DNA of 64,000 nucleotides from an uncultured virus (IMG/VR IMGVR_UViG_3300020148_000038) (Duplodnaviria > Heunggongvirae > Uroviricota > Caudoviricetes), in the IMG/VR virus record IMGVR_UViG_3300020148_000038; one strand, written 5' to 3'. Positions 8,792 to 62,956 of the stretch are shown in pieces. The position numbers and the translations under genes were made by a program. Within the stretch, counting starts at the first letter, position 1. Each line of letters begins with the position of its first letter. The notes below the pieces were generated by a model. The model was not told the DNA's origin and made no database searches. It worked only from the letters and a program-made list of their open reading frames with translations.

Positions 8792-9577
8792 ATGATGGTT
8801 GCTGACTCGGCTAAAGAGGTTGTCGTTCCAATTGATGCTGCCGACATATCAATTGGTGACATCATCAGATCTTCTCACTATAGACAGCTTCTTGGTCATT
8901 ACGGCGAAGGTAAAGTGACGGAGATTACAAATGAAGGTATCGTTGTCAATGACATTATTTTGAGTGGTTCGAAAGGGTGGACTTTTTACAAAGTTACAGT
9001 TCCAGAAACAAACATGATAGCGGAGCCGGTATATACCAATAACAAAACCGTTACCGTCCAAAGGGGTGTAGATGAGATTGAGTCTATGGAGTCGATGGAC
9101 GAAATTCGTAAACATTGTAAAGACCTGACAGTAACACTTCTTTTGTCTCTACTCAGAGATGAAAGTTGGGATGTTTTGGCAAAAGCCATCAAGCGTATCG
9201 GTGGAGCTAGAAACCTCGACATATTGTTCTCTAAATACACCGATTTGCAAGGTGTTCCAACAAGCGTGCTTAACCATAATTACATCAATCTGTTTACGTC
9301 GGATGCAAAAGAGAATATGCAAAGGATGTATTACTCCGGATTTGCTGGACTCAAAGGAGAAGAGCGGATTGAATACTGCGCCTCTTTCCTCCTTGCTTTA
9401 TTCCATAACAAGTTGAGCAAAAGAAGAATCGACCAAATAACTATTATCAGAAAAACCTTGGGCGTAGATAAATACTTGAAGTTGTGTCAACTCGACATCC
9501 CGTTTAAAGACATTCTCTTCGTGGCTGAAAATCGTCCTGATGTCGATATAGATGTTGTTGCAACAATGAATGAGTAA
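8792..9577 (+). CDS. C-terminal IDxD-module family protein
   Basis: ends LDIPFKDILFVAENRPDVDIDVVATMNE. Confidence 0.75.
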   Translation: MMVADSAKEVVVPIDAADISIGDIIRSSHYRQLLGHYGEGKVTEITNEGIVVNDIILSGSKGWTFYKVTVPETNMIAEPVYTNNKTVTVQRGVDEIESMESMDEIRKHCKDLTVTLLLSLLRDESWDVLAKAIKRIGGARNLDILFSKYTDLQGVPTSVLNHNYINLFTSDAKENMQRMYYSGFAGLKGEERIEYCASFLLALFHNKLSKRRIDQITIIRKTLGVDKYLKLCQLDIPFKDILFVAENRPDVDIDVVATMNE

Positions 9578-9586
9578 CGCGACCGT

Positions 9587-9742
9587 TTAATCATCAACAA
9601 TGATGCGGTATTTCTCCCAGCCTATTGCGCCGTTAGCAACAGCAATCAGAGCTTTGTCTGCTTCAAGGTTGTGATAATCGAATTCGTGGTAAGTCTGCCA
9701 TTCGTTATCTGGCGTAGTTTTATACATGACAACATATTGCAA
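9587..9742 (-). CDS. 51-aa hypothetical protein (not in ORF track)
   Basis: TTG start after GAGAAAGAAG; QYVVMYKTTPDNEWQTYHEF...KYRIIVDD. Confidence 0.5.
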   Translation of the reverse strand: MQYVVMYKTTPDNEWQTYHEFDYHNLEADKALIAVANGAIGWEKYRIIVDD

Positions 9743-9808
9743 GGCTCGACTTCTTTCTCTTGGCGACTTAATCCTATTATAGATTACTTCTCGTACTAAA
9801 TTCTGACA

Positions 9809-11002
9809 TTAATTCCCATTAGAACAAGTCACTTGTGAAGCGTTCTGTCCGGTTACTGCGGGAGGAAGAACCACAGCTTCGGGATCTGTTGTTTGTGTTC
9901 CTGGATTGGTGATTATAGAGCCGATATTTCCCGGTGCCGTTCCACCCGAAAGCACAATTTTCTGTTCGTTTTTGATTGCATTCATCAGCGCATTCGCTGC
10001 TGAGGTGTTCGGGAACACACCTGACTGACTACCAGAATTTCCATACACAGTTGGATATTGGATAAAGTTTACCTCTTCCAATTCGATATCTTTTAACGTC
10101 AATGCCATTGCTACTAAAGTGTTCAGATTGGCTAGACTTGTGGACAGCTTCACGTTATCTGCGGTCGCTCTTGCAAGAGCATATAGTTTGGTGAAATCGT
10201 TTAATGTGTTGTCGCTTTTTATTTCGCGTACCAAAGCCGAAAGGAACAGTTGTTGATTACTGATTCTCCCCAGGTCGCTTCCATCCCCAACACCATGCCT
10301 TGTCCGTAAAAACGCGAGCGCATCGTTTCCTTGGAGTGAATATTCACCCGGTTCAAGATGAACTCCGGTGTAGCTGTCATTAATAGCTGCGTTCACACAT
10401 ACATTTACGCCGCCAACTGCGTTAGACATCTCAATAACACCGTTGAACTCAACCATAGCTGCATACGGTATAGAAATCCCTGTTAAGTTCTCTACGGTCT
10501 TCACCACGCACGAAAGCCCTCCACGACTCAAAGCCTCGTTGATTTTAACGGAACGGCTCCCCGAACGAGTTTTCCCCGTTTCTGAATTAGTGCATTCCGG
10601 AATGTCTACAAAAGTATCTCTTGGGAATGAAACTGCGGTGATTCCGTCGTGGCTCTCGTTGATATGTATAAGGATATTAACATCATTGAGCGCGGCCGTT
10701 CTGTTTCCCCATCTTTGGTCGCCTTCTCCAGAATCGCTTCCTACGAGAAGAATATTCGCGCCGCCTTCTAGCGCTCCCATCTGCGGGACTTCCCTATCTT
10801 CTGTTTCTGGTTTGGTTTCCAATTCGACAGCATTGCTTTGAATGCTGTCATTTACCGAATAAACCAATATACCACCTGTGATGAGTGTTGCCGAAACCAC
10901 TACAGCCAAAGAAGACATGAGAAACTTACTGATGGTGATAAGTGGGTGATAGCGCTTCTGTGCACCATGTCTCACAGAAGCGACACGGCTTCGTGAAGAC
11001 AT
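9809..11002 (-). CDS. LCP (LytR-CpsA-Psr) family glycopolymer transferase, actinobacterial type
   Basis: N-terminal TM; NILLVGSD, SFPRD, KINEA, ALAFLRTRHGVGDGSDLGRISNQQ motifs. Confidence 0.92.
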   Translation of the reverse strand: MSSRSRVASVRHGAQKRYHPLITISKFLMSSLAVVVSATLITGGILVYSVNDSIQSNAVELETKPETEDREVPQMGALEGGANILLVGSDSGEGDQRWGNRTAALNDVNILIHINESHDGITAVSFPRDTFVDIPECTNSETGKTRSGSRSVKINEALSRGGLSCVVKTVENLTGISIPYAAMVEFNGVIEMSNAVGGVNVCVNAAINDSYTGVHLEPGEYSLQGNDALAFLRTRHGVGDGSDLGRISNQQLFLSALVREIKSDNTLNDFTKLYALARATADNVKLSTSLANLNTLVAMALTLKDIELEEVNFIQYPTVYGNSGSQSGVFPNTSAANALMNAIKNEQKIVLSGGTAPGNIGSIITNPGTQTTDPEAVVLPPAVTGQNASQVTCSNGN

Positions 11003-11070: not shown

Positions 11071-11613
11071 TCAGTTGACATAGATTGTGCTGCCATCGGA
11101 TGTCATGTCGATTTCGTTTTCTTTCCTTGCTGCATCTGCTAGGTCTTTACCGACTTGTCCGAGTTCTTCTCTATCCCAGAATCCAGTTCCATGTCCGTTG
11201 ACTGTATACCAGTAGTCGTGTCCGAAGTTCACAAGTCCGTATCCCGGCTTATCAAGAGCTTCTTTAACAAGGTCTTCATTTTCCGAAACGAATGCAAGAA
11301 CTCTGGATTCTAGGTCATCACGAATGTCATCAGTGATGTCGCTAATTCCGAAAATCCCATCGAGGGGTTCTTCGTCGTCTGTAATAGAGGTGAACAGAGC
11401 ACATTCAATTACCCCATCAACCATTTCATCAACTTCATCGCGTGAAAGGTCGCCTGGGTATCTCTTGCCATCTACTCCATATAGAGAGTTATCTACACGA
11501 GATGGGATGGCTGCTGTAGTGGGGAGTTTGGTTTCATCTACTGAGTCCTTGACATATCGAGTTACCAATACGCCGTTCTTATCAACACGTTTCTCTGGGT
11601 GTAAATTGCTCAT
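11071..11613 (-). CDS. DKNG-leader family protein with GHDYWYTVNGHGTGFWDR domain
   Basis: N-terminus LHPEKRVDKNGVLVTRYVK; promoter TGTC(11641-11638)-N12-TAATAT-N6-ATG. Confidence 0.85.
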   Translation of the reverse strand: MSNLHPEKRVDKNGVLVTRYVKDSVDETKLPTTAAIPSRVDNSLYGVDGKRYPGDLSRDEVDEMVDGVIECALFTSITDDEEPLDGIFGISDITDDIRDDLESRVLAFVSENEDLVKEALDKPGYGLVNFGHDYWYTVNGHGTGFWDREELGQVGKDLADAARKENEIDMTSDGSTIYVN

Positions 11614-15124: not shown

Positions 15125-15745
15125 ATGATTGATTCGCTACCGAAGGAGTTGGTCATGTCTGCCATTTCATTACCACTAACGCTTAAGCCTGTTGATAATA
15201 TATCATCCGAAGAAAGAGCTACTATCCTTGAATCATTGGGCGATAACTATTCGACCATTGGAACTGCATCCAATCCAGAAGAATGCTTGGAATACTTCGA
15301 AGGAAAGCATGGTGCATGGGTCATCTTCTCCCAAGAGCAACCTGTCGGATTAACAGGTCTTCACCGTTCCTCTTCTCGGGGTGAAGATTACATTCAGACT
15401 TCAACTTACATCTTCAATAAGAGCAGAAAGATGGGTTACAACAACTTCTTAAAGAGGGTCATGGCGCAAGCTTTCATTCATACCCCTCCATTTAAGATGT
15501 ATTGCGTGATTCGAGACTGGAACGAAAACGCCAGAAATTCTGTAGAGTCTGCCTTTCCAGATGTCAAGCCGATATTGGAGACGAGAACAGAAGCTCAAAA
15601 GCTGATAGACCCTGTTGAGCATCAATGGTTCTATGATTTCTCTAAGACTCACAGAAGGGATATTCTGTCGATGGAGAAGCCGATATACAACACCATTACA
15701 ATGTGGTTGAACAATCAGCGTAAACAGCTTTTCAAAGCGGCCTAA
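15125..15745 (+). CDS. GNAT (RimJ/RimL-like) acetyltransferase-fold protein
   Basis: PVGLTGL...STYIFNKSRKMGYN (motif A-like) and IRDWNENARNSV. Confidence 0.55.
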   Translation: MIDSLPKELVMSAISLPLTLKPVDNISSEERATILESLGDNYSTIGTASNPEECLEYFEGKHGAWVIFSQEQPVGLTGLHRSSSRGEDYIQTSTYIFNKSRKMGYNNFLKRVMAQAFIHTPPFKMYCVIRDWNENARNSVESAFPDVKPILETRTEAQKLIDPVEHQWFYDFSKTHRRDILSMEKPIYNTITMWLNNQRKQLFKAA

Positions 15746-16445
15746 AATTTGATGATGCTAATTCGGTGATGGCGATAATGTTAGCGATTGTTTCTGTTCT
15801 GATGAGTCTTACTAAATCAACTGACTCACCCAACTCATAGCCCCGGTCATTCTCTACTAGGTGTGCCCATTCACGCATATTATCTTCGGATAGATTGAAA
15901 CCATCATCTCGAAGATGCTGTATCTTCTTATACTGATTCTCTGTCGCATACATAGAATCGTTAATGTAATATTCTCTCCATATCTTCAAGAATGACTGGC
16001 GGGCGTAATCATCGATAAAAGGTGTTTCGAGAGTTTTTAGTTCTTCGGTGAGAAGTCCTGCCGCCCATGAACTTCCGTCTTCGGATTGAGTGCTACCCGT
16101 GATGCTGATAGACCACGCTTTATCAAGTTCTTTCAGATCGGTTGTCGTTACATCGTAAATGGGTTTAAGAACGACGTTGACATTGAGATGGCGTCCATCC
16201 TTGGTGATTCCTAATGAAGAAGTGGGTAGATGATATTCTCCGTCTTTATAGTCGATTCCACCTTCATCGAAAATCTCTGCAAGAAGCTTTTCGGTCATAT
16301 CGAATTCTTCGTTCCATTCGTCCTTGAAGGACGCCCTGGGTTCGAGTCCAACCACTCGGGAGTTGGTGATGTCTTCTGTCTTCTTGTAGACGTAGGTATG
16401 CTTTCCGTTTTTATCCACGATTGGCGTTTTCTGTAAGTTGGACAT
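15732..16445 (-). CDS. DKNG-leader family protein
   Basis: KTPIVDKNGKHTYVYKK; promoter TGAC-N12-TATACT-N6-ATG. Confidence 0.85.
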   Translation of the reverse strand: MSNLQKTPIVDKNGKHTYVYKKTEDITNSRVVGLEPRASFKDEWNEEFDMTEKLLAEIFDEGGIDYKDGEYHLPTSSLGITKDGRHLNVNVVLKPIYDVTTTDLKELDKAWSISITGSTQSEDGSSWAAGLLTEELKTLETPFIDDYARQSFLKIWREYYINDSMYATENQYKKIQHLRDDGFNLSEDNMREWAHLVENDRGYELGESVDLVRLIRTETIANIIAITELASSNFRPL

Positions 16446-17490: not shown

Positions 17491-18510
17491 TTATTTGCGA
17501 AAGTCTATGTCGAGCTTGGTAACTTTTTGCTTCTTGTTTGCGTTTCTATGGATAAGTTTAGTTACATCGGATGCTCTACTTTCATCCAATGTGTAGAAGA
17601 ACGGCTTATCGTCTAGCGCAAACCAAGCCGTTCTTGCATTGGCGGATCTTCTTCCGCCGCCGAAGAAGGCGTCATCAAAACCAGAGTATATTTTGTTGTT
17701 TCCGAGAATAGAGTTGTGATGTCCGGACTGTCTTGCAGAGCCATCAACAGACTTCAGCACCGCTGCGGCATCTGCAATATCTTGACCGACGAAATAAACG
17801 GTTCTGTTTACACCGTTGATGGTTACTGGTACTTCTGCGTATTCTAATTTTTCAGAGTCGCGTAGTGTCCCAATTGCTCTAGGAATGGCTCCGAATTCGT
17901 ATTCGGACGCGCCCATGTATTCCAACTCGTAATGTGTGTCAAACGAGCCTTCGTCCCCACCAGAACTCTCCATTCTTCTATTAAATATTTGAGAGAGATA
18001 GAATCTTTTTGTGTCCCTTTTTGAAATCCCAGGAACATTCACTCCAACTGTTTCTGCGGATTGACCGAAGATGGCGTTTTCAACTTCATTGTCTTTGTCT
18101 TCGTAACTCGAACTCTCGGGGATATCGAAAGTATCCATAGGTACATCTTCTAGACCCGAGGCGGCGATGATTTGTTTAGCAGCTTCTAATTCATTGGACG
18201 GAGAGAAAGAATGGAGTTCGCCTGCCAGGTGTTCACTCAAAGCTCCGAAGTAGACGAAATTAGGATTAGATAAGTCTTCGAAGAACATCTTAACCCTCTC
18301 CACATCACGCTCTAGAATTCTAGGGTTAGGAGCCTGTCCGTTATACATGACGGTGTTGATGATATTTTTGGTCTTCATGAACAAAGACCTGTTAGCCACC
18401 TTGTTGACTGCTTCGAAGTTTCTTGCGTTGGCTTCCTTGTTCAGATTCTTATGAACGGTGGTTCTTTTGCCGTTCTTGTCAATGATTTGGGTGGGGGTAA
18501 GATTGTTCAT
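17491..18510 (-). CDS. DKNG-leader family protein with YMGASEYEFGAIP domain
   Basis: LTPTQIIDKNGKRTTVHKN; promoter TGTC(18538-18535)-N12-TAGCAT-N6-ATG. Confidence 0.85.
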   Translation of the reverse strand: MNNLTPTQIIDKNGKRTTVHKNLNKEANARNFEAVNKVANRSLFMKTKNIINTVMYNGQAPNPRILERDVERVKMFFEDLSNPNFVYFGALSEHLAGELHSFSPSNELEAAKQIIAASGLEDVPMDTFDIPESSSYEDKDNEVENAIFGQSAETVGVNVPGISKRDTKRFYLSQIFNRRMESSGGDEGSFDTHYELEYMGASEYEFGAIPRAIGTLRDSEKLEYAEVPVTINGVNRTVYFVGQDIADAAAVLKSVDGSARQSGHHNSILGNNKIYSGFDDAFFGGGRRSANARTAWFALDDKPFFYTLDESRASDVTKLIHRNANKKQKVTKLDIDFRK

Positions 18511-49399: not shown

Positions 49400-49403
49400 A
49401 TGT

Positions 49404-50868: not shown

Positions 50869-50870
50869 TG

Positions 50871-51669: not shown

Positions 51670-51672
51670 TGG

Positions 51673-52347: not shown

Positions 52348-52451
52348 ATGTAGAGAGTATCACTAGTATACGTCGCTTATGTATTATTTTTTAGTATGTT
52401 TGCACAGTTACACGCCTCTGTAATGTCTTCTATATTTGGTAATCTATCTCT

Positions 52452-53339
52452 GTGAGGTTGTCCAGTCTGATTCCGAAGAGAATCATAGATAAAAACGGTA
52501 AACAGAACACTGTTTATATTAAGCCTGAAATTGATGCACCGACCAGACATGTTCCCATCCCAATCAATAGCAATCCAGATTTTCATAGAAGCATATCCAT
52601 CACGGGCTGGCCGACTAGGGCGTTAGCTGGAGTGGATTCAGAAGGTAAATGGGATGGACGCAAACTAGAGCATGAAAGAGTCTTGATAGGTGGATATGAA
52701 AGTTGGCATATAGCTCCGGAAGGACGCTCGGGTGCATATTGTTATCAGTGCCATTCGTTTTATCCTAAAGATACCCACGACTTCTTCAATGCTGAGTGCG
52801 AGGTGTGTGGGTTTACATCTATGGGCAAACCGCTTTCGGGAATAAGAGAAGAGTTTTTGGGCTATTTCGACACATCTACGGTGAAAGACGATAGATGGTT
52901 TCATATTACTACCAACCCGGATTGGGGCAAGGATATCAATGACCCCGAGTATATGGATAAGCCTTTTGTTCATGTAGGGACTGAAGAGGCTGCCTATGAA
53001 AGAATGAGAGATATCATCAAAGATCTTAGAGGCGCATCGAAACCAGATTTTTATTTATACGAAGTGTCGGTGAAGGAGTCCGCGCCTGTTCACCCCGCTA
53101 TCATCTCTGACTACGACATCTCTGCTCCGAAAACTATAAACCAAGTGAAAGAGGAAATCGCGAACGACATCAGTGAAGACGGAACTTCTTACGATGATCG
53201 TGCCGAGTTCTTCGAGATGTATGAATTGAACGGGGTAACAGCCTACATGAATGAATATGAATCCGTAGGTTCCGTTTCGTTGATAGCTCACCCAGATTCT
53301 CTAGAAATTATTGGGGTGAAGGCAATAAATCTAGATTAG
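52452..53339 (+). CDS. DKNG leader + Zn ribbon + ADP-ribosyltransferase-like domain (paralog of 28440..29255)
   Basis: IPKRIIDKNGKQNTVYIK; CYQC...CEVC; WFHITT, VHVGTEEAAYER, AYMNEYESVGSVSL; TGTC(52424)-N12-TAATCT-N6-GTG. Confidence 0.7.
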   Translation: MRLSSLIPKRIIDKNGKQNTVYIKPEIDAPTRHVPIPINSNPDFHRSISITGWPTRALAGVDSEGKWDGRKLEHERVLIGGYESWHIAPEGRSGAYCYQCHSFYPKDTHDFFNAECEVCGFTSMGKPLSGIREEFLGYFDTSTVKDDRWFHITTNPDWGKDINDPEYMDKPFVHVGTEEAAYERMRDIIKDLRGASKPDFYLYEVSVKESAPVHPAIISDYDISAPKTINQVKEEIANDISEDGTSYDDRAEFFEMYELNGVTAYMNEYESVGSVSLIAHPDSLEIIGVKAINLD

Positions 53340-53387
53340 ATGCGAACGTTGTTATAGTATGTTCGCGGAGAAAGAAAGAGTCTATCA

Positions 53388-53792
53388 ATGGATAAGATGG
53401 TCACTCATTTAGAGTCTGCTGGTAACGATGAAGTATCGGCAGCAACTCACATAGCTTTGTTTTATGCATGTATGTCCATCAGGGGTCTTCTCAATGAAAA
53501 GCATCAGGTAGATAGGTCTATATCACCTGTTGAATTCTTCAAAACACATACAGACTATAGACTTTCTATTCGTGACCTAGTTCCTAACGGACTGGATTAC
53601 CAAAGGCTTTATGAGGTTTATCTGGTAGAGAATGGTTGGCAGAGAATACCGTTCTCTCGAATCGAAAAAGAAGAGCCATACAACATTGAGAACTGTTGGG
53701 AAAACGTAGACATCCTGAATCAGTTCATAGAACAACAAAAGTTTTTCAGATTAGAGAACGTAAATAGTCCAGTTCGATTTCCATATCTTTGA
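53388..53792 (+). CDS. hypothetical protein
   Basis: 134-aa ORF with purine-rich SD. Confidence 0.65.
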   Translation: MDKMVTHLESAGNDEVSAATHIALFYACMSIRGLLNEKHQVDRSISPVEFFKTHTDYRLSIRDLVPNGLDYQRLYEVYLVENGWQRIPFSRIEKEEPYNIENCWENVDILNQFIEQQKFFRLENVNSPVRFPYL

Positions 53793-54039
53793 TGGCAGAC
53801 TTTATTGATTCATCTTCTGTGATTGGGAGGTTGGATAATATATCATAGACGATGTACAGTCTTCTGGCGGAATCCAGCATCTCTTTTTTACCCGATTGCT
53901 GTGCCGAAGTGGTGAATGAAACTATCTGCCCTCCTAGTGGTGCTATACCGATGTCTTTTAGAGGTCGTGAAAGGAACTCTTTTAAGTTCCGTTCTATTCT
54001 ATCTAGATGAGTTTCAAAGACCAAAGAACTATTTCCCAT
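53746..54039 (-). CDS. hypothetical protein
   Basis: 97-aa ORF; TAGGAT-N6-ATG. Confidence 0.6.
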   Translation of the reverse strand: MGNSSLVFETHLDRIERNLKEFLSRPLKDIGIAPLGGQIVSFTTSAQQSGKKEMLDSARRLYIVYDILSNLPITEDESIKSAIKDMEIELDYLRSLI

Positions 54040-54123
54040 GCCCGAAATCCTATCAGCGGAATATTTGGAATCATCCTGTTTGCGATATTTGACAACAAAC
54101 TAACGTTGCGCTACCATTAAATT

Positions 54124-54594
54124 ATGACCAACCTGACAATCAACACGACTGTTAATTTCTCTACGACCGAAGATGCCCGCCGAGTGGCTACTGCCTTGGA
54201 AGTTGTGTTGGGAGATAAGTTCGTTCCGGGGTCTATCCATCTCACTGAGTTTCCTTCCATGAAGGATGTTCCGACGCACGTTCCCACTTTTGATAAGAGC
54301 AAGGTGGTACATGGCGTTCAGGGAGGTCTTGGTTTGGCTAACTTCATTATCAAGCACGTCACCGAATCCACTAGCACCGATGTTTCGTCCGACTTCTGGA
54401 ATGAATTTCTTGATGAAATTAAGTCTACCGGGCAGCTTGATAAGCTATCCCTCGTCTCGCTTGTGGGTGAGATTCTTGGGGAAGAGCCTTCATCTACGCG
54501 GGTCATGGATATTGTTGTTGATGCATATTCCGCATTTTATCGTGATGAGGCCGCTCGCGAACTTTCTGTGCTCAGCAGGGCGTCCAAGAGATAA
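54124..54594 (+). CDS. hypothetical protein
   Basis: TTGACA(54089)-N17-TACCAT-N6-ATG. Confidence 0.75.
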   Translation: MTNLTINTTVNFSTTEDARRVATALEVVLGDKFVPGSIHLTEFPSMKDVPTHVPTFDKSKVVHGVQGGLGLANFIIKHVTESTSTDVSSDFWNEFLDEIKSTGQLDKLSLVSLVGEILGEEPSSTRVMDIVVDAYSAFYRDEAARELSVLSRASKR

Positions 54595-54625
54595 AAGCTT
54601 ATATCTTCATAATATAAGCTTTTTC
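54593..54625. terminator. AT-rich inverted repeat between convergent genes
   Basis: AAAAGCTTATAT-N7-ATATAAGCTTTT. Confidence 0.55.
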
Positions 54626-54690
54626 TTGGAATTTGTTGTGTGCAAACAACAGAAAAACATCGTTTGTTTTGTTTGATACATACAAGCGGT

Positions 54691-55161
54691 TTAGTCTTCG
54701 AGCATCCGCATTTTCGTTTCCCACAACTCGATTGCTTCGGAAACGCCGGGAGTTGGGTCTTCTTGATTTAGTTCTTTCTCTTCATCAAGAACTTCACACA
54801 TAAGGTCGTGAGAAGCTTTCATGCTGTTTTGAGAACTGATGATTCTGTTCCATATATCGAATAGCTCTTCCACTTTGTTGGCCTTGTTCACATACAGGTC
54901 GTAGCTTGGTTTACCGTAAAGCCTATCTGTCATGTCCTGTATGTTCTTGATATCTTCGATGGTGAGATTGTAAAGATCCTTGACATCGCCATACTGGTCG
55001 TCGCTGAATGATGGAATGTCACGCATAGCAAACGGTCCTGGTGCGCGGGGAGGTATGGCTTGACGAACACCACCCACCTTGGCAACATCATTTCTTTTGT
55101 GAACGGTGGTAGCCCTTCCGTTCTTATCAATGATTCGTTCTGGGTGCGTATTTGCTGACAT
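54691..55161 (-). CDS. DKNG-leader family protein
   Basis: THPERIIDKNGRATTVHKR; TTTC-N12-TATGAT-N6-ATG. Confidence 0.85.
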   Translation of the reverse strand: MSANTHPERIIDKNGRATTVHKRNDVAKVGGVRQAIPPRAPGPFAMRDIPSFSDDQYGDVKDLYNLTIEDIKNIQDMTDRLYGKPSYDLYVNKANKVEELFDIWNRIISSQNSMKASHDLMCEVLDEEKELNQEDPTPGVSEAIELWETKMRMLED

Positions 55162-55197
55162 GTGAACATCATACACGACACCACCGAAACGAAACTT

Positions 55198-55536
55198 CTA
55201 CTCTATTGGGTAAGAGTATTCAACAAGAAGCTCAGACATCTTTAAAAGGGGTTCATCGCCCTCTAGATACTTCACTCGTTCAACTTCTTGCGGATTTCGT
55301 GACAGCAAGAAGGCTAGCTCTCCAACAGTAATCTTGTCCCAATCAAGCTTCGAGGTTCCTATGAACTTAACCGTGCAAATCATCTCGTCAAAATCAACTT
55401 CTGAACCCCGTCTACCTTCGCCTGGTTTCCTTTTGGATTCCCAATCCATACCGTAGAAGATGGGAGATAGATGGTTCCTAACGGTGTTGTTGATATAGGG
55501 AAAGACTGATTCGCATATTGTTCGATTGTTCACCAT
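55198..55536 (-). CDS. hypothetical protein
   Basis: 112-aa ORF. Confidence 0.6.
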   Translation of the reverse strand: MVNNRTICESVFPYINNTVRNHLSPIFYGMDWESKRKPGEGRRGSEVDFDEMICTVKFIGTSKLDWDKITVGELAFLLSRNPQEVERVKYLEGDEPLLKMSELLVEYSYPIE

Positions 55537-55590
55537 CCGAGTCTAGCATCTTTGCTTGACGATATTGCTTTCTCAGCGTTTAGATTACGT

Positions 55591-56052
55591 TTAGCCCGTG
55601 TAGAACGAAACCAAAGTGTCTACATCAAGACTGCTCTTACTGAGTTTTTCAAGTGCTTCCACGTCGCCTCGGGGAATATGTTTGATGAGATACAATATTT
55701 CGTTTTCGTTCCTGTATCCCCTTGCTTCCTTAATGGAGTCAATTGCCATGATGACGCCTATTAAGTTCAGAGCATATTTATGAACTGCCGCCCAATGTAG
55801 AACGTCACGAGATGACTCACCAAACGGTTCTAATGTATCTTTACACCAATAATAAGCCTGCTCGGTAAAGAAGCGGTCACCACCTAACGCGACGAGCGAG
55901 GCGAATGAGTGCGGAAACCTCTTGGGTAGCTTGAGTCCATTTGCATATAGGTAAACCATGTGTACATAAACACGGTCGTCAAAGGTTATGTTGTGTCTTA
56001 TCGCCCATTTTCTGACTTTCCGCTTATAGAAAGACTCAAAAACATAACTCAT
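55591..56052 (-). CDS. C-terminal IDxD-module family protein
   Basis: ends ALEKLSKSSLDVDTLVSFY; TTGATT-N18-TATAAT-N6-ATG. Confidence 0.7.
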   Translation of the reverse strand: MSYVFESFYKRKVRKWAIRHNITFDDRVYVHMVYLYANGLKLPKRFPHSFASLVALGGDRFFTEQAYYWCKDTLEPFGESSRDVLHWAAVHKYALNLIGVIMAIDSIKEARGYRNENEILYLIKHIPRGDVEALEKLSKSSLDVDTLVSFYTG

Positions 56053-56080
56053 GTCGAGATTATATAGTCAGAATGTCTGG

Positions 56081-56869
56081 TTAATCAAGCGTTGGAAACG
56101 GCAGACAGTTGTTGTCAAATGGGGTGATGATGACATCCTCCACCTTCTTGTGATGCAGATGCGATATCACTGGGTAATTTCGCACGTTCGCGAAATCATA
56201 AAGATTTCTGATTTCCGGGTGCTCGTCATAAGAAAGTAGCCACCCGCTTTCCCTTTCTGCAAGATAGTCTGCCAGTTCCTTATGGTCTAACGACCCGTGA
56301 ATGTAAAGCCCACCACCTTCGGCGTAATACGGCGGGTCGTAATAGACGAACTCGGCATCTGATGCTTCTTTCCAATGTCCGTTCTTAACAACAACTTCGC
56401 TTCGATTCAGAAGCTTGTTGCAACTTTCTGCCCATGCACGAAGTCTCTTCGGACTCCATCTGCAATCAACTTTGTATGCCCCGGTTTGGTTCTTTCCTCC
56501 AATGGGTGAACCTGCCATGCCTCCCATGCCAGAATACGAGATTTGATGCAACGCGAGCTTGCGGAATCCGTCCGCGTATGGATCTCCGGTGTTTGGGTTG
56601 TTCTTAAACTCATAGAAGTCTTCTGCGCGCGGTATATAGCTGTCTATCCGTTTGGTGAGTTCTTCTATATCGTTGACGATAGATAACCAGAGTGCATAAA
56701 TTCCGTAATCCAAGTCGTTGATTACGATTCTTTCTAGAGGTTGTCTCTTCGCCACCTCTAAGGTTATCGCCAACCCTCCCGCAAAAGGTTCCGACCAGTC
56801 TTTTACGTCGGTGGGAATGTACTCTAATAGAGTTTTTGCGTGCTTTCTTTTGCTTCCTGGGTATCTCAT
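56081..56869 (-). CDS. D12-class (Dam-like) N6-adenine DNA methyltransferase
   Basis: MRYPGSK, EPFAGG, INDLD, YYDPPYY and WLLSYD motifs. Confidence 0.92.
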   Translation of the reverse strand: MRYPGSKRKHAKTLLEYIPTDVKDWSEPFAGGLAITLEVAKRQPLERIVINDLDYGIYALWLSIVNDIEELTKRIDSYIPRAEDFYEFKNNPNTGDPYADGFRKLALHQISYSGMGGMAGSPIGGKNQTGAYKVDCRWSPKRLRAWAESCNKLLNRSEVVVKNGHWKEASDAEFVYYDPPYYAEGGGLYIHGSLDHKELADYLAERESGWLLSYDEHPEIRNLYDFANVRNYPVISHLHHKKVEDVIITPFDNNCLPFPTLD

Positions 56870-56936
56870 ATCAATCTCGTAAATGATAGCGCGACAGGTG
56901 TTAAATATCAACAAATCTGCCGAGCAGAACTTGTTG

Positions 56937-57344
56937 TTACCCTCGGTATCCTTTTAGGAAAACCGCGAGGGTGTCGTAGAAATCTGCGTTCTCATCGATC
57001 CATTCTTCGACATGAGAGAAGAACTCAGAAAGGATTTTTCTGGCTTCGTGGTGAAGTGGGTGCTCTATATTCTTACCAGCCCATATCAACCATTCTGTGT
57101 ATGTTGTGACAAGGTAGTTGTCCTGATCGAACCCGCTATCGAAATTATAGAGAAGTTCATCTAAATCGGCTATCTCTTGTCTGATGCTGTCGGTAACCTC
57201 GCCAAAGCGTCCGGTAGACATAAGCATCATTGCGTTTTGAAGGACCAAGGCATAATCGTCTACAGAAACACCCACAACCTTGATTCGAGGGATAGTTTTT
57301 AGGGTCGCCTTTGATTGTTCAATAGCCTTTTTAGATGCGCTCAT
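56937..57344 (-). CDS. hypothetical protein
   Basis: MSASKK... after GGAG SD. Confidence 0.7.
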   Translation of the reverse strand: MSASKKAIEQSKATLKTIPRIKVVGVSVDDYALVLQNAMMLMSTGRFGEVTDSIRQEIADLDELLYNFDSGFDQDNYLVTTYTEWLIWAGKNIEHPLHHEARKILSEFFSHVEEWIDENADFYDTLAVFLKGYRG

Positions 57345-57451
57345 GTCGTCTCTCCAGTGACAGCCTCGGAATGATACCTTATTGGGTTGCCGTTGGCAAC
57401 AAAACTCTGAATAACGATTCCCGATACGTATTTGGCAGCTATCATTACCGA

Positions 57452-57547
57452 ATGCGAAACATATCAAATTCCAGAACGGTAAAGGTAGCTTTAGTGGCAG
57501 CAGCTATTGCTGTTGTTGTCGGAACTGTACTCACTATAAGTTTTTAA
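57452..57547 (+). CDS. 31-aa single-TM peptide
   Basis: MRNISNSRTVKVALVAAAIAVVVGTVLTISF; TATCAT-N6-ATG. Confidence 0.45.
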   Translation: MRNISNSRTVKVALVAAAIAVVVGTVLTISF

Positions 57548-57575
57548 CCTCGGTTCCTGATGGTACATTATCTAT

Positions 57576-58145
57576 ATGTCAGAAAAAGTGCCCAAGAAAA
57601 TTGTTGATAAGAATGGCAAACACACAACGGTTTATGTCAAATCTCAGTCTTCGGGCAAAATAGACCGAATCGTTCCTCAAAACGCCCCACCTATCGTTGG
57701 ATACGAAACTATAGATATCAGGGATACCTATGAGGAACGGGCAACTAATTTAGTCAATACATTATTCTCGGCCGCTCGACATGCCAGCGATAAATCAAAT
57801 GACGACGATTTATCTCGGCATCTTTTTGATATCGGGCATGACGTTGTTGCTCTCATGTCAGAAATGCATCTGAAAATTCAAAGACAACGTGAAGAGATAG
57901 AGTTGCTTCAACAAGGTAGACTTATGAACTATTCACAATTCGTGGACTCTCACTCCAATTACTTCTTCGGAACGAAGTTGGAAAGGTTCAAGGACGCTTC
58001 CGGTAAGGAACATCTTGTGATTCCAAACGGGGTTGCCATAGGAAGTGTCTCTATGGACGATGCTGATTTAACGAAATTCAGGAAAGCTGTTTCTGAGTAT
58101 AACTCGATATTAGCCGCGCTGGAATCTTATATTTCAAAGGAATAA
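57576..58145 (+). CDS. DKNG-leader family protein
   Basis: VPKKIVDKNGKHTTVYVK; TACATT-N6-ATG with a degenerate CCTC box. Confidence 0.85.
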   Translation: MSEKVPKKIVDKNGKHTTVYVKSQSSGKIDRIVPQNAPPIVGYETIDIRDTYEERATNLVNTLFSAARHASDKSNDDDLSRHLFDIGHDVVALMSEMHLKIQRQREEIELLQQGRLMNYSQFVDSHSNYFFGTKLERFKDASGKEHLVIPNGVAIGSVSMDDADLTKFRKAVSEYNSILAALESYISKE

Positions 58146-58847
58146 ACTACGCGCCATTTCTGGGTTGATGTTGTTCTCGATTGCGTTTTTGATGTCGTCT
58201 ATTCTGAATATTCCCGCCCGAATATAATCTAGTGCAGGAAGTCCATCTCGCAACATCTCAAAGATGTAGGAAAACGCTATGTCGCTGTTATTCAAAGAGC
58301 CGTTGACAACTTCTGTGGTGATATTGGTTGGCTCTTCGGCTTCGCGGTGAAGAACGTCGTTCATAATCATATGTGCTTCTGATTTATAGATTGACATCGG
58401 AAGCACTGATACAAATTCTCCTTCAACCTCTAATGAGAAATGCGGCTCTTGATCCGAATGCATAGCCTTCATAACAAAAAGTGGTGCCAGAGGGTTGATT
58501 GTGTTGGTGGTGAGTTTTCGTATGATTGTTCGTGCAACGCCATCAACATCTGCCCGGATTGATTCCGGAATGTAGCTTCTGTCCAAAGAGGATATGTAAT
58601 CTTTGACGGTATTGAAATCGAATTGCAGGTGAATCAGTTCCTCTGTCACTTCTCGCATAGTTTCTTTGGTTCGGGTGCTTGAGAACTGTTCCCATCTCTC
58701 GGTAACTATATCCCTGGCTCGCGGGTCGATGACCCGAAAGGTTTCTTTTATCGGCGTATCAATATCGAATTCATATGGGTTTTCCCAGTTGTAGTGTTCA
58801 AAGATTCCGCTTTTAAAGAATTGCTCTGATGTTTCGTTTCTTTTCAA
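58134..58847 (-). CDS. C-terminal IDxD-module family protein
   Basis: ends YIRAGIFRIDDIKNAIENNINPEMARSL. Confidence 0.8.
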   Translation of the reverse strand: MKRNETSEQFFKSGIFEHYNWENPYEFDIDTPIKETFRVIDPRARDIVTERWEQFSSTRTKETMREVTEELIHLQFDFNTVKDYISSLDRSYIPESIRADVDGVARTIIRKLTTNTINPLAPLFVMKAMHSDQEPHFSLEVEGEFVSVLPMSIYKSEAHMIMNDVLHREAEEPTNITTEVVNGSLNNSDIAFSYIFEMLRDGLPALDYIRAGIFRIDDIKNAIENNINPEMARSLFL

Positions 58848-58863
58848 CGCTGTTCTTTCTTAC

Positions 58864-58983
58864 TCAGCCGAGACGAGCAAATCCTTTGTACCAGTCGCCC
58901 CTTTTGCGGTAAGAATCGACCGAAAATGCTGCCAAAGCCAAAATCGGAACAATAACCGCCCCCAAAACAACTAACCTCTTCAT
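58864..58983 (-). CDS. 39-aa membrane peptide (not in ORF track)
   Basis: MKRLVVLGAVIVPILALAAFSVDSYRKRGDWYKGFARLG; TAGACA-N17-TATCCT-N6-ATG. Confidence 0.6.
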   Translation of the reverse strand: MKRLVVLGAVIVPILALAAFSVDSYRKRGDWYKGFARLG

Positions 58984-59015
58984 GTCGAGAGGATAACATC
59001 ATGCCCGACGTTTGT

Positions 59016-59996
59016 CTATAACGGTTGCGTCTCTTCGTATAACCATTCGGGTATCTGACGTTCAGGGAATCTGACCATTGTCGAGTTACCTATTGCGTAG
59101 ACTGATTCTTTGCTTGCCTTCTCTATGAATCCTAGGTTCTCCTGCCTGAAGAAATAATTCCCTAAAACGTCTTTGCCGTTTCCGTAGTAAAACATATTGT
59201 CTTCAAATCCGTACTCTGTATAGAACTTTCTTAACCTACTGTAATGAGACTTTCTGTTTTCTTCGTAATGGATTGAGCTTTCCCTAATGCTTCCATCTCC
59301 TGCTTCACTTGGAACTAATGAAAGGACATAATGATTTTCGTCAGCGTGTTTGGTGATGATCGACATCACATGCGAACCTATTCCAATTCCTCGCATCTGT
59401 GCGTCTATGTATATGTCGTTGATGGCGCAGAACTTTCTTTCTTCGTCGGCGCTTCTATCCGATAACTTGATATAGATGACCCCGTTGTATATTTCTTTGA
59501 TGAAAGCGGTCATCTCTTCTAACGTTGCGAAAGAAGGCACTATGGTTTTGTTTATTTTCTTCGCTTGTTCGAGAAGATATGTTCGGTCTTTGGGTAATCT
59601 AACCAAACCCGTCTCTCTTCCATCTCGCGAAGATACTGTGGCGTTAATCCATCCGCCAGGTTCTCCAGCGCTATGCAGTCTGACCGTTTCAAGGTCTATA
59701 TCATGTAAACGATCTATATCGCTCCAGTCATAGGCTTTATTTCTGGATACAATCTCTCGCATTATCCGTGGTATAGACAATCCTTCTGGACATTCACTCA
59801 ATCCACATCCGACTACGTTGTGTTTTCTACTTTTGCAGATTTTGGGTTCAAGCCTGTTCTGAATAAGTGCGTTCTTGTCGTGTAACAGCCCGCTGTTGTC
59901 AACGTTTACAACCCTATTATTGGTTTTTCGGGAGATGTTCTTCCATACATGAGTGAACTTACCGTTCTTGTCTATGATGGGAACCCGAGTGGACAT
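59016..59996 (-). CDS. DKNG leader + GNAT-like domain
   Basis: RVPIIDKNGKFTHVWKN; INDIYIDAQMRGIGIGS and RLRKFYTEYGF. Confidence 0.8.
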   Translation of the reverse strand: MSTRVPIIDKNGKFTHVWKNISRKTNNRVVNVDNSGLLHDKNALIQNRLEPKICKSRKHNVVGCGLSECPEGLSIPRIMREIVSRNKAYDWSDIDRLHDIDLETVRLHSAGEPGGWINATVSSRDGRETGLVRLPKDRTYLLEQAKKINKTIVPSFATLEEMTAFIKEIYNGVIYIKLSDRSADEERKFCAINDIYIDAQMRGIGIGSHVMSIITKHADENHYVLSLVPSEAGDGSIRESSIHYEENRKSHYSRLRKFYTEYGFEDNMFYYGNGKDVLGNYFFRQENLGFIEKASKESVYAIGNSTMVRFPERQIPEWLYEETQPL

Positions 59997-59998
59997 GT

Positions 59999-60619
59999 TT
60001 ACCCTCCGACGAGGAATTCGTAATCTTTGTTGTTTCCAATGAACTCTCTGAATTCAGCGGTTTGCTTCTTAACGCTATCAAACATCTTGGTTACGCGATG
60101 CATTTCGTCATAGTCGCTCATATCGAAGCCTACTTCGCTGGCTAGCTCTTGTGGCGTCCGACAGTTGTCGGATATGGAGGCGTCGAGAATCAAGGAGTGA
60201 AGAACGTCTTCGACAGTTGGAACCGTATCAATAGCAAGTCCAGTGCTGTATGGAATCTGAATCTCTTTGTTGTCGTCATTCGTAAGGGTGATGATAAACT
60301 TGTTTTGTAATATGTTCTTACCAACATTATCTGTATAACGCTGTCCTATGTAATAAGCCGAACCGGTCACCCCGAGCCTTTTGGATACTTTTTCGATCCT
60401 AAAAGTTTCTCCGTCTGAGTATGAACCTTTAGGGAGCATCGGAGTTGAACTCTCTGGTTGTAAATCAGCGATATTGGTGACGGTTCTATTCTCTTGGTGC
60501 CCGGTATTTGGAACGGCCGACACCATCTTTTTCACTCCGACTTTTGGCTCGGCGCGTTTATGTACAGTGGTCTTACGTCCGTTCTTGTCTATGATTTGGG
60601 TGGGTACGAGGTTTGACAT
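59999..60619 (-). CDS. DKNG-leader family protein
   Basis: LVPTQIIDKNGRKTTVHKR; GGTC-N12-TATAGT; AAGGAG SD; PTVEDVLHSLILDA domain. Confidence 0.85.
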   Translation of the reverse strand: MSNLVPTQIIDKNGRKTTVHKRAEPKVGVKKMVSAVPNTGHQENRTVTNIADLQPESSTPMLPKGSYSDGETFRIEKVSKRLGVTGSAYYIGQRYTDNVGKNILQNKFIITLTNDDNKEIQIPYSTGLAIDTVPTVEDVLHSLILDASISDNCRTPQELASEVGFDMSDYDEMHRVTKMFDSVKKQTAEFREFIGNNKDYEFLVGG

Positions 60620-60684
60620 TGGGATGCTCCTTAACAATGTTACTATACAACGAGGGTGTGACCTCATTCGAATAGAGTTTCTAA

Positions 60685-61575
60685 TTAGCAACCGTAACGA
60701 GATCCGTATGCATTAGCGCCCGCTTCAAGTTCCTCTCTGTTGTAGATTACGCCGCCTTCCATATCAATCATTCCATTCACCCATTGATAATAGTGGTAGG
60801 ACTCATGTGCTATGGCCGTTCTGACTTTACAATCTGGTCTGTTGAGCCAAGCTGGAGTGATAATAATGTAGTTGTCTCCTGGGTAATAACATGCAACGCC
60901 AATAGGACAATACGCAATAACTATTGGTGGTACGTAAATAGAAATACCTTGACTCAGCCTTGCTAATCTGTCCGCCTGAGATGCGTCCGGGACTCGCCCT
61001 GACCCCCGCGCAGCCGCCTCACGCGCCGCTGCTTCCGCTTCCTCCTTGGCTATTCTGTCGTTCTCGCTTTTGACTATTTTCTTGAAGCTTTCGATTTTCT
61101 CTTCTAACGGCGGAATTTGTTCGTCCACCCACAGCGTTACTTCGGATTCCCATTCTTCCACGGTTTCCTTGGTGACAATCGAGTGCCAAACTTGGAGTCT
61201 TTGGGATGGTTCTATTTCGTAGATATCATCCAATTGGTCAACTTGCTCTTTTATTTCCTCGGCAAGAGATGTCATTTCCTTGGTTGGATTTGCCCCAGCT
61301 TTTCCGTGATCTGCGTCGAGCACGTCTGTTATGTTTTTAATTTCCAATTTCAGCCTAGAGTCTTCATCACGCAAGAAGGACTCAATTGACTTCTTTAGCT
61401 CTTCGTGCTCTTTATTGGCTTGCCGTATCTGGTTTTCTGTTCTGTGTATGCTTTCCATATATCTAGAATTCAGGCTGTCAACTTCGCTGTCAGACGGCAC
61501 CCTCATGTCAGATACGAACATGAGTCCTAATGTTGGAATTATTAACAAGCTGATAATACGAACAAAGTTTTTCAT
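60685..61575 (-). CDS. secreted or anchored coiled-coil protein with HExxH metallopeptidase-like domain
   Basis: N-terminal hydrophobic helix; AIAHESYH...ELEAGANAY. Confidence 0.75.
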   Translation of the reverse strand: MKNFVRIISLLIIPTLGLMFVSDMRVPSDSEVDSLNSRYMESIHRTENQIRQANKEHEELKKSIESFLRDEDSRLKLEIKNITDVLDADHGKAGANPTKEMTSLAEEIKEQVDQLDDIYEIEPSQRLQVWHSIVTKETVEEWESEVTLWVDEQIPPLEEKIESFKKIVKSENDRIAKEEAEAAAREAAARGSGRVPDASQADRLARLSQGISIYVPPIVIAYCPIGVACYYPGDNYIIITPAWLNRPDCKVRTAIAHESYHYYQWVNGMIDMEGGVIYNREELEAGANAYGSRYGC

Positions 61576-61622
61576 TATGGGTTGACGTTAGCAAAGATTC
61601 GTGATGAATGGGATAACTTTGA

Positions 61623-62078
61623 CTATTTTAGTCCAAAAATATATTCGCCCGATTCTGGGTCATCTCGTATTTGAAGAGTAAAGTATTCATCTCCCCTTAA
61701 TATCGCTGCTGCGTATCTGTGGTTTCCGTCGATTAAAGGGTGAAGGTTAAACAGGTGTTTCTCTACACTGAATATGGGAAGGTGCCAATCGTCTTCGCAC
61801 TGGACGCCATTGTGATAAAACCACGCCACCCTATTGATGTGGTATTGCCTAACTTCATTAGAATATCCTTCTAGATCAACTCCACAATATTCCTTGGATG
61901 ATGCCTCAGCAAGCGGAACAGACCTAACCTCTTCTTCAGTGAGAACATCACCGCCCCAAGTCGGGTAAATAAAAGCGCTAGGAATGATAGACTTCAGTAA
62001 AGAAACCCGAACCTTGTAAATGTTGTGAGATAACCTAATGGCATCTTCAGTGGTTGGTTTATCTGTTCGTGTTGACAT
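61623..62078 (-). CDS. ParB/sulfiredoxin N-terminal-like protein
   Basis: LIDGNHRYAAAILRG motif; TTGATT-N17-TATTAT-N7-ATG. Confidence 0.65.
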   Translation of the reverse strand: MSTRTDKPTTEDAIRLSHNIYKVRVSLLKSIIPSAFIYPTWGGDVLTEEEVRSVPLAEASSKEYCGVDLEGYSNEVRQYHINRVAWFYHNGVQCEDDWHLPIFSVEKHLFNLHPLIDGNHRYAAAILRGDEYFTLQIRDDPESGEYIFGLK

Positions 62079-62110
62079 CGCTGGGATAATAAAACATCTC
62101 GGTCTAAAAA

Positions 62111-62956
62111 TCAACCAGAGATAATCTCTAGCACGTCGTTATCGACTTTAGCCCATTCCCTCAACCTGAATGGATTCTTTTCGTGAGCGGCTACATCAAC
62201 AATTGCATCAAAGTCCAGCCTGAAGAGGCGAACCATAATCAACCATATCCACAGGGGAGGGAAGTTGTGGTCTTGGCGCGCCCTGTTTCTGATGTAGTAG
62301 AAGACCCAGAGGATGAATTGTCTGTTTCCGATTCTGCGATACAGTCGGACATTCGCTGCGTTGATGTCTTCCCATAGTTCACGCCCTATATAGTGTTGCC
62401 GCGAGATGATTTCGGCGGCTTCTCCAACCGTAATGCGCTCGTTATAGAAATGGGTTTTCATAGAAAGCGTTGAAAGCAACAACGGGGTAAGTCTTCCCTC
62501 TTGAGAGAGAATTTTGATTAAGTCGTCTTTGTTACAAGAGATCAACCTATGTGGTTTTTTAACCGAGCTATTTCCATATTTACTATGACCCAGATGTTGA
62601 AGTCCTGGACTATAAATCGTATCTTTGTATTTCAGCCACATTCCGACAAAGAAAGCAGCCAAATCCAAATCCTCTGCGTCATTGATGCTGGTTAGTCGTG
62701 AAATTTGATACGGCGAAGACTCCCTGAATTCGGATTTTTCAACCTCTGTCAAATCGGAAGCTTTAAGAAATCTTTCAAATTGGGTTTGAGTGGGGAGTGA
62801 CCAATAACTAAAATTTGAAAATGGTATGCGGCATTGTTCGATATCTCGGTAACGCCCGTCTTGGGAGGGGTCAACCCATTCCAAGAATTTAGATATTGGC
62901 TCGATGCTGTCTTCTAGTGATTTATCTATAACTAGGCTTCTTTTTGGAAAGCTCAT
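62111..62956 (-). CDS. hypothetical protein, weak C-terminal IDxD module
   Basis: ends REWAKVDNDVLEIISG. Confidence 0.65.
   Translation of the reverse strand: MSFPKRSLVIDKSLEDSIEPISKFLEWVDPSQDGRYRDIEQCRIPFSNFSYWSLPTQTQFERFLKASDLTEVEKSEFRESSPYQISRLTSINDAEDLDLAAFFVGMWLKYKDTIYSPGLQHLGHSKYGNSSVKKPHRLISCNKDDLIKILSQEGRLTPLLLSTLSMKTHFYNERITVGEAAEIISRQHYIGRELWEDINAANVRLYRRIGNRQFILWVFYYIRNRARQDHNFPPLWIWLIMVRLFRLDFDAIVDVAAHEKNPFRLREWAKVDNDVLEIISG

Follow-up and report, generated by a model that had tools for sequence, protein, structure and literature searches.

A previously undescribed C-terminal domain on dissimilar proteins of a giant plasmid- or phage-like element

We describe a previously undescribed, independently folding domain of 45-55 residues, located at the extreme C-terminus of 16 well-supported, and up to 23, otherwise dissimilar proteins encoded in a 64-kb stretch of DNA (the window, that is, the whole 64,000 nucleotides analyzed) from the uncultured virus record IMGVR_UViG_3300020148_000038 of IMG/VR. 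The genes for these proteins lie in tandem arrays, their products show no detectable similarity in their N-terminal parts, and the domain occurs widely in metagenomes. We tentatively propose that this shared tail, hereinafter the C-module, is a constant docking domain on variable proteins, which possibly routes them for delivery along with DNA.

A conserved domain at the C-terminus

The original prediction held that about 23-25 open reading frames (ORFs) of the window share a C-terminal tail. All 25 ORFs that it listed are present at the coordinates given, and their tails were anchored on a terminal [ILV]-D-x-[DE]-[ILV]. In the main leave-one-out analysis, profiles of 41-42 tails, taken both from the window and from relatives, were searched against the six-frame ORFs of the window together with 2,332 reversed or shuffled decoys. 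The ORFs ranking above every decoy numbered 14 of the 25 (named here by their first coordinate): 20436, 21397, 26925, 34308, 35506, 36114, 46376, 47884 and 58134 at E<0.01, and 19793, 32796, 39443, 40424 and 47097 at E 0.04-0.3. A single decoy ranked above each of 32179 and 38440, and nine of the 25 failed (8792, 25273, 30268, 33746, 37908, 44331, 55591, 62111 and 14622). A comparison with shuffled controls was one of the tests that the original prediction had named as capable of refuting it, and this one upholds the tails of most, though not all, of the listed ORFs. A profile built solely from 22 tails outside the window recovered five window ORFs at E<1e-3 and seven at E<0.1, the best of the 2,332 decoys reaching E 4.4. 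With the 20 window tails alone, 12 of 20 outranked all non-members upon being left out and 17 of 20 came within rank 23, with 37908, 44331 and 55591 being weak; the complete 20-tail profile recovered only its own 20 from the six-frame translation, missing 8792, 25273 and 62111 and giving E values above 2 for 30268 and 14622.

A terminal motif, [ILV]D.[DE][ILVMT]..x[ILVMFY], chosen post hoc after the tails had been seen, occurs 19 times (in 18 proteins) within the last 25 residues of the 102 predicted proteins; this corresponds to 19 occurrences in 2,550 terminal residues versus 2 in the other 17,881, a 67-fold enrichment (binomial p = 2.6e-28). It is present in seven of the nine ORFs that failed the profile test (8792, 30268, 33746, 37908, 44331, 55591 and 62111), which are hence probable members. 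Neither the profile test nor the motif supports 25273 or 14622, the latter of which had been taken for a remnant. The predicted membership accordingly stands for 16 ORFs by profile (14 plus the two outranked by one decoy) and for seven by motif, and falls for these two. Chance and low complexity were considered as sources of the tails and are ruled out by the decoy and leave-one-out tests.

The module is built of three to four short helices from helix-turn units of 13-14 residues with the pattern G-[IV]-x-x-x-[DE]-[IVL]. An AlphaFold2 model of the last 45 residues of ORF 36114, based on the 20-tail alignment, has a pLDDT of 93.2 with helices at residues 2-7, 9-17, 23-31 and 36-44; in the full-length model of 46376 (mean pLDDT 63) the tail alone is confident. 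At 45-55 residues, the conserved unit is longer than the ~35 residues first suggested. Its conserved columns comprise a Tyr, the Gly-[IV] turn, hydrophobic positions and an Asp that starts, and caps, the last helix. The last 40 residues are acidic, with a mean net charge of -3.4 in 41 tails and -4.8 in 106 database representatives, which argues against nucleic-acid binding. A complex prediction with two copies of the tail scored 0.01 against a mark of 0.42, which counts neither for nor against a homodimer. In fold searches the three-helix bundles of the UBA, CUE and EF-Ts-N domains ranked first, without significance (best Z 4.2; Foldseek E at least 2.9): the superposition on the Dsk2 UBA domain (Z 4.2, rmsd 2.7 A over 44 residues) has many unrelated small bundles within 1 Z unit, and the Foldseek match to the Mud1 UBA domain has an E of 2.9. 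No Pfam family matched any of 20 tails, including no UBA-type family at E up to 10 and no helix-hairpin-helix (HhH) family, and a search of the module profile against PDB sequences gave no significant match and no UBA chain among its matches.

The original prediction's claim that the N-terminal portions are largely dissimilar is borne out. BLASTP among those of 24 proteins yields just two marginal pairs (~2e-4), and jackhmmer searches with them produced no cross-match linking any two window members, whose lengths range from 59 to 401 aa. Likewise, C-module genes adjoin one another 11 times against 5.2 expected by shuffling (P = 0.002), in keeping with the tandem arrays that had been claimed; judged from coordinates, the start and stop codons of neighboring array genes overlap by 8 nt. 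Close variants of these proteins in protein clusters differ only at the start codon.

Distribution beyond the window

The same elements encode a second family, which bears a basic N-terminal tag (N-tag) of the form P-x-x-[IV]-[IV]-D-K-N-G-K-x-T-T-V-[HY]-K at about residues 6-25 and is represented by at least 16 other ORFs of the window. At the DNA level, its pattern has six exact matches in the window against 0 expected. Used as a probe for related elements, the N-tag retrieved 93 stretches of metagenome contigs of up to 231 kb and a single related IMG/VR contig of 202,737 bases (the 202-kb relative), which has 8 N-tag ORFs; a pattern search of 185,579 species genomes and a tblastn search of phages with one N-tag protein found nothing. 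The C-module and the N-tag never occur on the same ORF (0 among 45 C-module and 160 N-tag ORFs).

In the metagenome loci of the relatives the module is present and more sharply conserved, as Y-F-x-A-G-I-W-D-x-x-F-I-x-R-C-I-x-x-G-I-D-x-E-l-A-x-S-L, and in all but one match the best module domain lies 0-12 residues from the stop. A 7.9-kb locus (L103) holds 8 C-module genes. Jackhmmer searches started from the relatives' tails recruit window ORFs 34308, 26925, 58134, 47884, 46376, 36114 and 20436, and no reversed decoy.

A census with the 41-tail profile (A2) of 1.84 billion cluster representatives returned 306 at E<=1e-3 and 15 at E<=1e-10. Of the best 148 census matches, counted without the proteins of the window itself, 106 contain a single dominant module and 42 are multi-repeat. 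In all 106 single-module representatives (median length 171 aa) the module ends within 15 residues of the C-terminus, and five of the 106 are stand-alone modules of 50-99 aa. BLASTP places the N-terminal parts of 101 representatives in 16 clusters, namely one of 78 and 15 small ones. The large cluster constitutes a family of ~165 aa whose motifs LDRSxLGxFA and ExxFWW lie upstream of the GIWD...GID tail (alignments A4 and A5). Only one window ORF, 47884, matches this family over its full length (profile positions 21-163 of 166, E 5.7e-14); 20436, 58134, 26925, 34308, 36114 and 32179 match its profile only over the C-terminal 40-70 positions. Searches of 185,579 species genomes, of 50,697 phage and 72,556 plasmid records, and of IMG/VR found no match to the ~165-aa family, and neither it nor the module has a family in Pfam, NCBIfam, PHROGs or PADLOC. 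In a word-index search the 20-tail profile retrieved nothing beyond the proteins of the window itself, and the ~165-aa family profile retrieved seven unnamed metagenomic proteins. No database source names the module proteins, and a literature search with module motif strings found nothing relevant.

The multi-repeat matches include M56/BlaR1-type peptidases (10 of 52 scanned representatives) with 5-13 copies of the unit in their C-terminal region; proteins combining ArdC-N and MPTase-PolyVal (with or without LPD25) or DUF3846, LPD18 and DUF3849, with the repeat Q-M-x-E-I-R-x-G-L-E-x-G-L-D-V-S-x-Y-A; a Ser/Thr kinase with similar repeats after the kinase domain; and a protein with 13 or more repeats of 27 residues. 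Three multi-repeat proteins show weak matches to HHH_5, to the polymerase-lambda finger and to the NCBIfam DNA topoisomerase I (PRK14973). Profile-profile comparison by hhalign relates the module to the polyvalent-protein repeat with 93% probability over 18 columns and to the M56 repeat with 95% over 24 columns (reversed control <1%); this comparison is partly circular, since the repeat sets were taken from proteins already selected by the same profile, and individual repeats score only 0-14 bits. Others, such as ankyrin-repeat and adhesin-repeat matches at ~2 bits per copy, are clear false positives.

What the shared tail might do

The explanation that we tentatively favor is a constant docking handle, through which many variable proteins would attach to a single shared partner, a product of either the element or its host. 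More specifically, we guess that this partner may be part of a route by which proteins accompany the element's DNA when it enters a new cell, either through conjugative transfer or through packaging in a capsid, and about half of the weight that we place on the docking handle goes to such delivery. The N-tag family would run in parallel. In the relatives, Pfam domains follow the N-tag in 10 of 116 ORFs: ArdC-N/MPTase, ART-PolyVal, ADPrib_exo_Tox (twice), LPD29, DUF7007, DUF7226 and a weak Tox-PLDMTX (twice). These identifiable cargo domains would be those known from polyvalent "escort" proteins, and the passages of PMC5512222 on such proteins describe ArdC-N, MPTase, ART and LPD-type domains as delivered with DNA by conjugation or injection. 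The suggested link to delivery stems from these domains along with the recurrence of the module's last helix-turn unit inside polyvalent proteins.

Several observations weigh against this proposal. The 24 window C-module proteins contain no Pfam domain and no recognizable effector domain. The conserved columns of the module look structural, with no conserved surface patch evident. The bulk of the database N-terminal parts (78 of 101) fall in the one full-length-homologous family, and some proteins hold two module units in tandem, so that the module can be internal and a free C-terminus is not always required. The 202-kb relative has its 8 N-tag ORFs yet no C-module. A six-frame search of that contig found no Terminase_6N (PF03237), HK97-type Phage_capsid (PF05065) or T4SS-DNA_transf coupling protein (PF02534); all that was seen there was an AAA_10 ATPase, along with type II/IV secretion-like ATPases. 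Neither a partner nor a transfer or packaging apparatus was identified in the window or this relative, the span examined being 64 kb of a ~495-kb contig.

One of the closest parallels among known systems is with the XVIPCD of the X-Tfe effectors of the Xanthomonas antibacterial type IV secretion system, which the relevant passages of PMC8740702 describe as a conserved folded C-terminal domain on proteins with differing N-terminal parts, recognized as a handle by the machine component VirD4, to whose all-alpha domain such domains bind. The module resembles it in being a shared folded C-terminal domain on proteins with different N-terminal parts. However, the XVIPCD is described there as having ~120 aa, conserved motifs and a Gln-rich tail, whereas the module has 45-55 residues, is acidic and lacks such a tail; the two are unrelated in sequence, and a search of the 202-kb relative found no coupling protein of the T4SS-DNA_transf family. 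With polyvalent proteins (Iyer et al. 2017) the system shares the last helix-turn unit of the module, recurring in tandem inside ArdC-N/MPTase- and LPD-containing proteins, and the ArdC-N, ART-PolyVal and LPD29 domains of the sister N-tag family; but polyvalent proteins bear several effector-type domains per polypeptide, in contrast to the separate, small, terminally tagged proteins seen here. The window C-module proteins, devoid of any Pfam domain, have just the short repeat unit in common with them, and the passages of PMC5512222 on polyvalent proteins do not describe that unit. A third parallel lies in phage T4, and here too a short shared terminal address marks unrelated proteins. Its capsid targeting sequence is a short N-terminal peptide on internal proteins, which are packed into the particle and then injected together with the DNA. 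In this it is closer to the N-tag than to a folded C-terminal module, and neither the window nor the 202-kb relative yielded a capsid or terminase gene.

An extended form of the docking proposal, which we regard as speculative and rather unlikely, is that this lineage has "unbundled" the polyvalent escort protein into dozens of small single-domain proteins, each with one of two mutually exclusive address tags, namely the basic N-terminal peptide or the acidic helical C-module. The two tags would lead into a single delivery or packaging route at separate entry points, and more than a third of the window genes (about 40 of 98) would then be cargo sent ahead with the DNA.

The strongest alternative to a docking domain is that of a single fast-evolving paralog family without any tag function, derived from the ~165-aa "LDRSxLGxFA ... 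ExxFWW ... YFxAGIWDxxFIxRCIxxGIDxElAxSL" protein. Its C-terminal subdomain would be the slowest-evolving part, and the N-terminal parts in the window would have diverged or expanded beyond recognition. We consider this somewhat unlikely, though well worth entertaining: it agrees with the dominant N-terminal cluster, with 47884 as a full-length member, with a conserved-Trp helix upstream of the module that is kept, as read from the tails, in several window members, with two-unit proteins and with tandem arrays, typical of paralog expansion, such as that of L103 and those implied by the adjacency statistic. It sits less easily with the wide spread of member lengths, with the 15 other N-terminal clusters, with the failure of jackhmmer to join any two window members through their N-terminal parts, and with the occurrence of stand-alone modules and of the unit in unrelated architectures. 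Moreover, six other window members match the family profile only over the C-terminal 50-70 positions. The same evidence qualifies the original view of a variable part joined to a constant C-terminal module, for which N-terminal dissimilarity and stand-alone modules speak, and against which stand the one dominant full-length family and the tandem two-unit proteins.

The original prediction went on to liken the proteins to F-box adaptors, with the variable part binding a substrate and the tail recruiting a protease, chaperone or RNA polymerase of the host. Such a model fits the architecture, the top-ranked, non-significant fold matches are UBA, CUE and EF-Ts-N bundles of similar size and helix arrangement, and two J-domain membrane proteins are encoded within C-module operons. 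UBA domains have a Met-Gly-Phe loop, which the Gly-hydrophobic loop between helices of the module recalls. Nonetheless, none of the 20 tails matches Pfam UBA (PF00627) or its relatives, no F-box or other adaptor family was matched in sequence (no F-box among the Pfam matches of 86 window proteins or 20 tails, and no Skp1-like family among those of the 86), and all fold scores are in the chance range for small helical bundles. Further, a J-domain gene is also present in the module-free 202-kb relative, and no protease or other partner was seen in the 64 kb. We deem recruitment of this kind improbable and find no support for the analogy. The tandem helix/G-[IV]-x hairpin/helix geometry resembles that of HhH repeats; however, the second hairpin Gly is replaced by Asp or other residues (G-[IV]-x, [NG]-[IV]-D), and the tails, which are acidic, have no HhH match in Pfam.

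It is still less probable that the module is a ligand- or envelope-binding repeat, which would recognize a repeating cell-envelope or small-molecule ligand in the manner of sensor-domain repeats and anchor the proteins there. The multiple units in M56/BlaR1-type membrane peptidases and after the Ser/Thr kinase domain, with the hhalign match to the M56 repeat, favor such a function; against it stand the low scores of single repeats, the partial circularity of that comparison, and the N-termini of the window members, among which inspection by eye, with no predictor run, noticed no signal peptide or membrane segment.

The least probable explanation, in our estimate, is that each C-module protein is the cognate partner of one N-tag effector, as an immunity protein or export chaperone, with the variable part binding that effector and the tail docking the pair. 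In its favor, the two families share operons (e.g., on the minus strand, from 42755 down to 37908 and from 36988 down to 32179), a good many of the C-module proteins are both small and acidic, and the N-tag, as read from the sequences, is basic. Yet C-module and N-tag genes adjoin only 2 times against 5.6 expected (P(<=obs) = 0.048, with the regular expression counting 12 of at least 16 N-tag genes), which disfavors one-to-one pairing, and in the 202-kb relative N-tag genes occur while C-module genes are absent.

Member genes and the parent element

The member with the strongest profile support is the 237-aa protein encoded at 58134-58847 (-), with the module as its last ~50 residues (leave-one-out and relatives-only E both 2.3e-9; no decoy above). 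It is followed by the full-length ~165-aa family member of 163 aa at 47884-48375 (-; leave-one-out E 1.4e-7), a 292-aa protein at 26925-27803 (-; 6.8e-7, relatives-only 2.9e-7), and a 401-aa protein at 34308-35513 (-; 8e-7, relatives-only 4.4e-7) with an extended repeat region upstream of the module, which jackhmmer from a relative recruits at 5.7e-22. The 322-aa product of 20436-21404 (+; 8.8e-7, relatives-only 1.7e-4) is encoded by the middle gene of the 19.8-22.4 kb array. Two shorter members are the 143-aa protein at 46376-46807 (-; 2.2e-4), for which a jackhmmer search started from a relative gives an alignment over residues 28-143 (E 1.5e-29), and the stand-alone module of 59 aa at 36114-36293 (-; 2.5e-4), the start of which overlaps the stop of ORF 36293-36658 by 1 nt. 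Next come the 350-aa protein at 21397-22449 (+; 3.3e-4, no decoy above) with a GIDVDVYL-type tail and the 201-aa protein at 35506-36111 (-; 1.7e-3, no decoy above), whose tail matches that of 19793 by BLASTP at 1e-5.

Weaker leave-one-out scores, again with no decoy above, were obtained for 19793-20443 (+; 216 aa, E 0.038), the start of which sits at the stop of an isocitrate dehydrogenase gene; 39443-40414 (-; 323 aa, E 0.057); 40424-41002 (-; at most 192 aa, E 0.2); 47097-47903 (+; 268 aa, E 0.21); and 32796-33965 (-; E 0.28). The terminal motif is present in 19793, 39443, 40424 and 32796. The listed ORF 40424-41002 overlaps the J-domain gene 40861-41571 by ~140 nt, and its true start is therefore probably later; similarly, the real start of 32796 probably lies below 33746, because the sequence upstream of that point is not in the frame of ORF 33746. 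The terminal motif is also present in the two ORFs outranked by one decoy, 32179-33045 (-; E 2.0) and 38440-39459 (-; 339 aa, E 2.6). In the former, the first ~83 residues of the listed ORF are spurious read-through; a check of composition showed the N-terminal parts of both 32179-33045 and 32796-33965 to be out-of-frame read-through into the neighboring gene in a T-poor minus-strand stretch.

A probable member of 262 aa at 44331-45119 (-) fails the leave-one-out profile and has the terminal motif; in a relative, its N-terminal part has a homolog (L118, 5048-5914; E 4e-35) whose tail is of the GID type. Further probable members, assigned by the terminal motif, are 33746-34276 (-; 176 aa, leave-one-out E 58), 37908-38447 (-; 179 aa, E 150) and 55591-56052 (-; 153 aa, E 240), and possible ones assigned likewise are 8792-9577 (+; 261 aa, profile E 74), 30268-30870 (+; 200 aa, profile E 76), which overlaps a longer minus-strand ORF within a region of skewed composition, and 62111-62956 (-; 281 aa), missed by the profile.

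The N-tag ORFs lie at 11071-11613, 15732-16445, 17491-18510, 24071-24577, 36734-36988, 41624-42055, 42048-42755, 48415-49164, 51673-52347, 54691-55176, 59016-59996 and 59999-60691 on the minus strand and at 22480-23058, 23059-23766, 28440-29255 and 57576-58145 on the plus strand, with variants of the tag at 11646, 16491, 37017 and 52452. Antisense to the N-tag gene 15732-16445 is a 47-aa frame (16071-16214, +) that recurs as the best non-member match of the module profiles (E 0.14-0.5), probably by chance.

The skewed region extends from 30000 to 35500 and shows an extreme strand asymmetry, with A 15.5, C 15.1, G 31.2 and T 38.2% on the plus strand over 5.5 kb, peaking at 31500-33000 with A 13.7, C 10.3, G 36.5 and T 39.5%. 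As genes of both strands are affected, the asymmetry looks mutational; the plus strand appears to have gained C-to-T and A-to-G changes, as would be expected after it had long been exposed in single-stranded form, and the region could mark an origin of replication or transfer. It also generates spurious long minus-strand ORFs.

The window has ~98 genes and a G+C content of 40-49% per 4-kb window. Records of its proteins trace to a contig of 494,976 bases, with identical copies on contigs of 358,353 and 93,247 bases. Pfam matches among the 86 proteins scanned are few (NadR-like, PnuC, isocitrate dehydrogenase, LytR_CpsA_Psr, Fic, two J-domain proteins, two DNA methylases, DUF6941, a BNR/sortilin protein and CAP), and PHROGs contributes almost nothing; neither scan detected a capsid or terminase gene. 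Megablast of the 20 kb from 40,000 to 60,000 against phage and plasmid collections gave no match, and IMG/VR scans with two window proteins found nothing. The J-domain proteins, encoded inside C-module operons at 40861-41571 (-) and 45152-45553 (-), have C-terminal hydrophobic (membrane) segments, and J-domain genes are present too in the 202-kb relative and the metagenome locus L098. The BNR/sortilin-repeat protein (2336-4378, +; 680 aa) has a type IV pilin-like hydrophobic N-terminus; the 202-kb relative encodes a similar protein as well as two T2SSE ATPases and one T2SSF protein.

This relative, labeled a provirus by IMG/VR, encodes Pol III alpha, DnaB, a clamp and clamp loader, gyrase B, RNR, ThyX, NAD ligase, RtcB and NAMPT, along with a type I-E Cas set, the two T2SSE-type ATPases with T2SSF, the AAA_10 ATPase and an N-tagged ArdC-N protein. 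The Cas3, Cse1, Cas5 and Cas6e-type genes of the type I-E set lie in its loci (contig G001) L047 14277-19261 and L048 385-1760. Among 134 long ORFs, of which 125 were covered by Pfam and 82 by PHROGs, no capsid, portal, terminase or tail family was found. The BNR/sortilin protein and DnaJ are common to the window and this contig, and DUF6941, DnaJ and LytR_CpsA_Psr to the window and the metagenome loci of the relatives; all are members of one lineage of elements. The parent element of ~495 kb is plasmid- or phage-like, either a giant plasmid or a very divergent huge phage being a candidate.

The C-module defines a real domain family, hitherto undescribed, that has undergone an unusual expansion, and on the plainest reading our findings still add such a family, with 306 cluster representatives. 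Should it serve for docking or as an address, it would mark out a large and so far invisible set of proteins deployed together by giant mobile elements, for which the A2 profile would be a simple sequence handle in metagenomes; and, were this proposal true, the C-module and the N-tag together would provide a directly testable two-signal sorting system.

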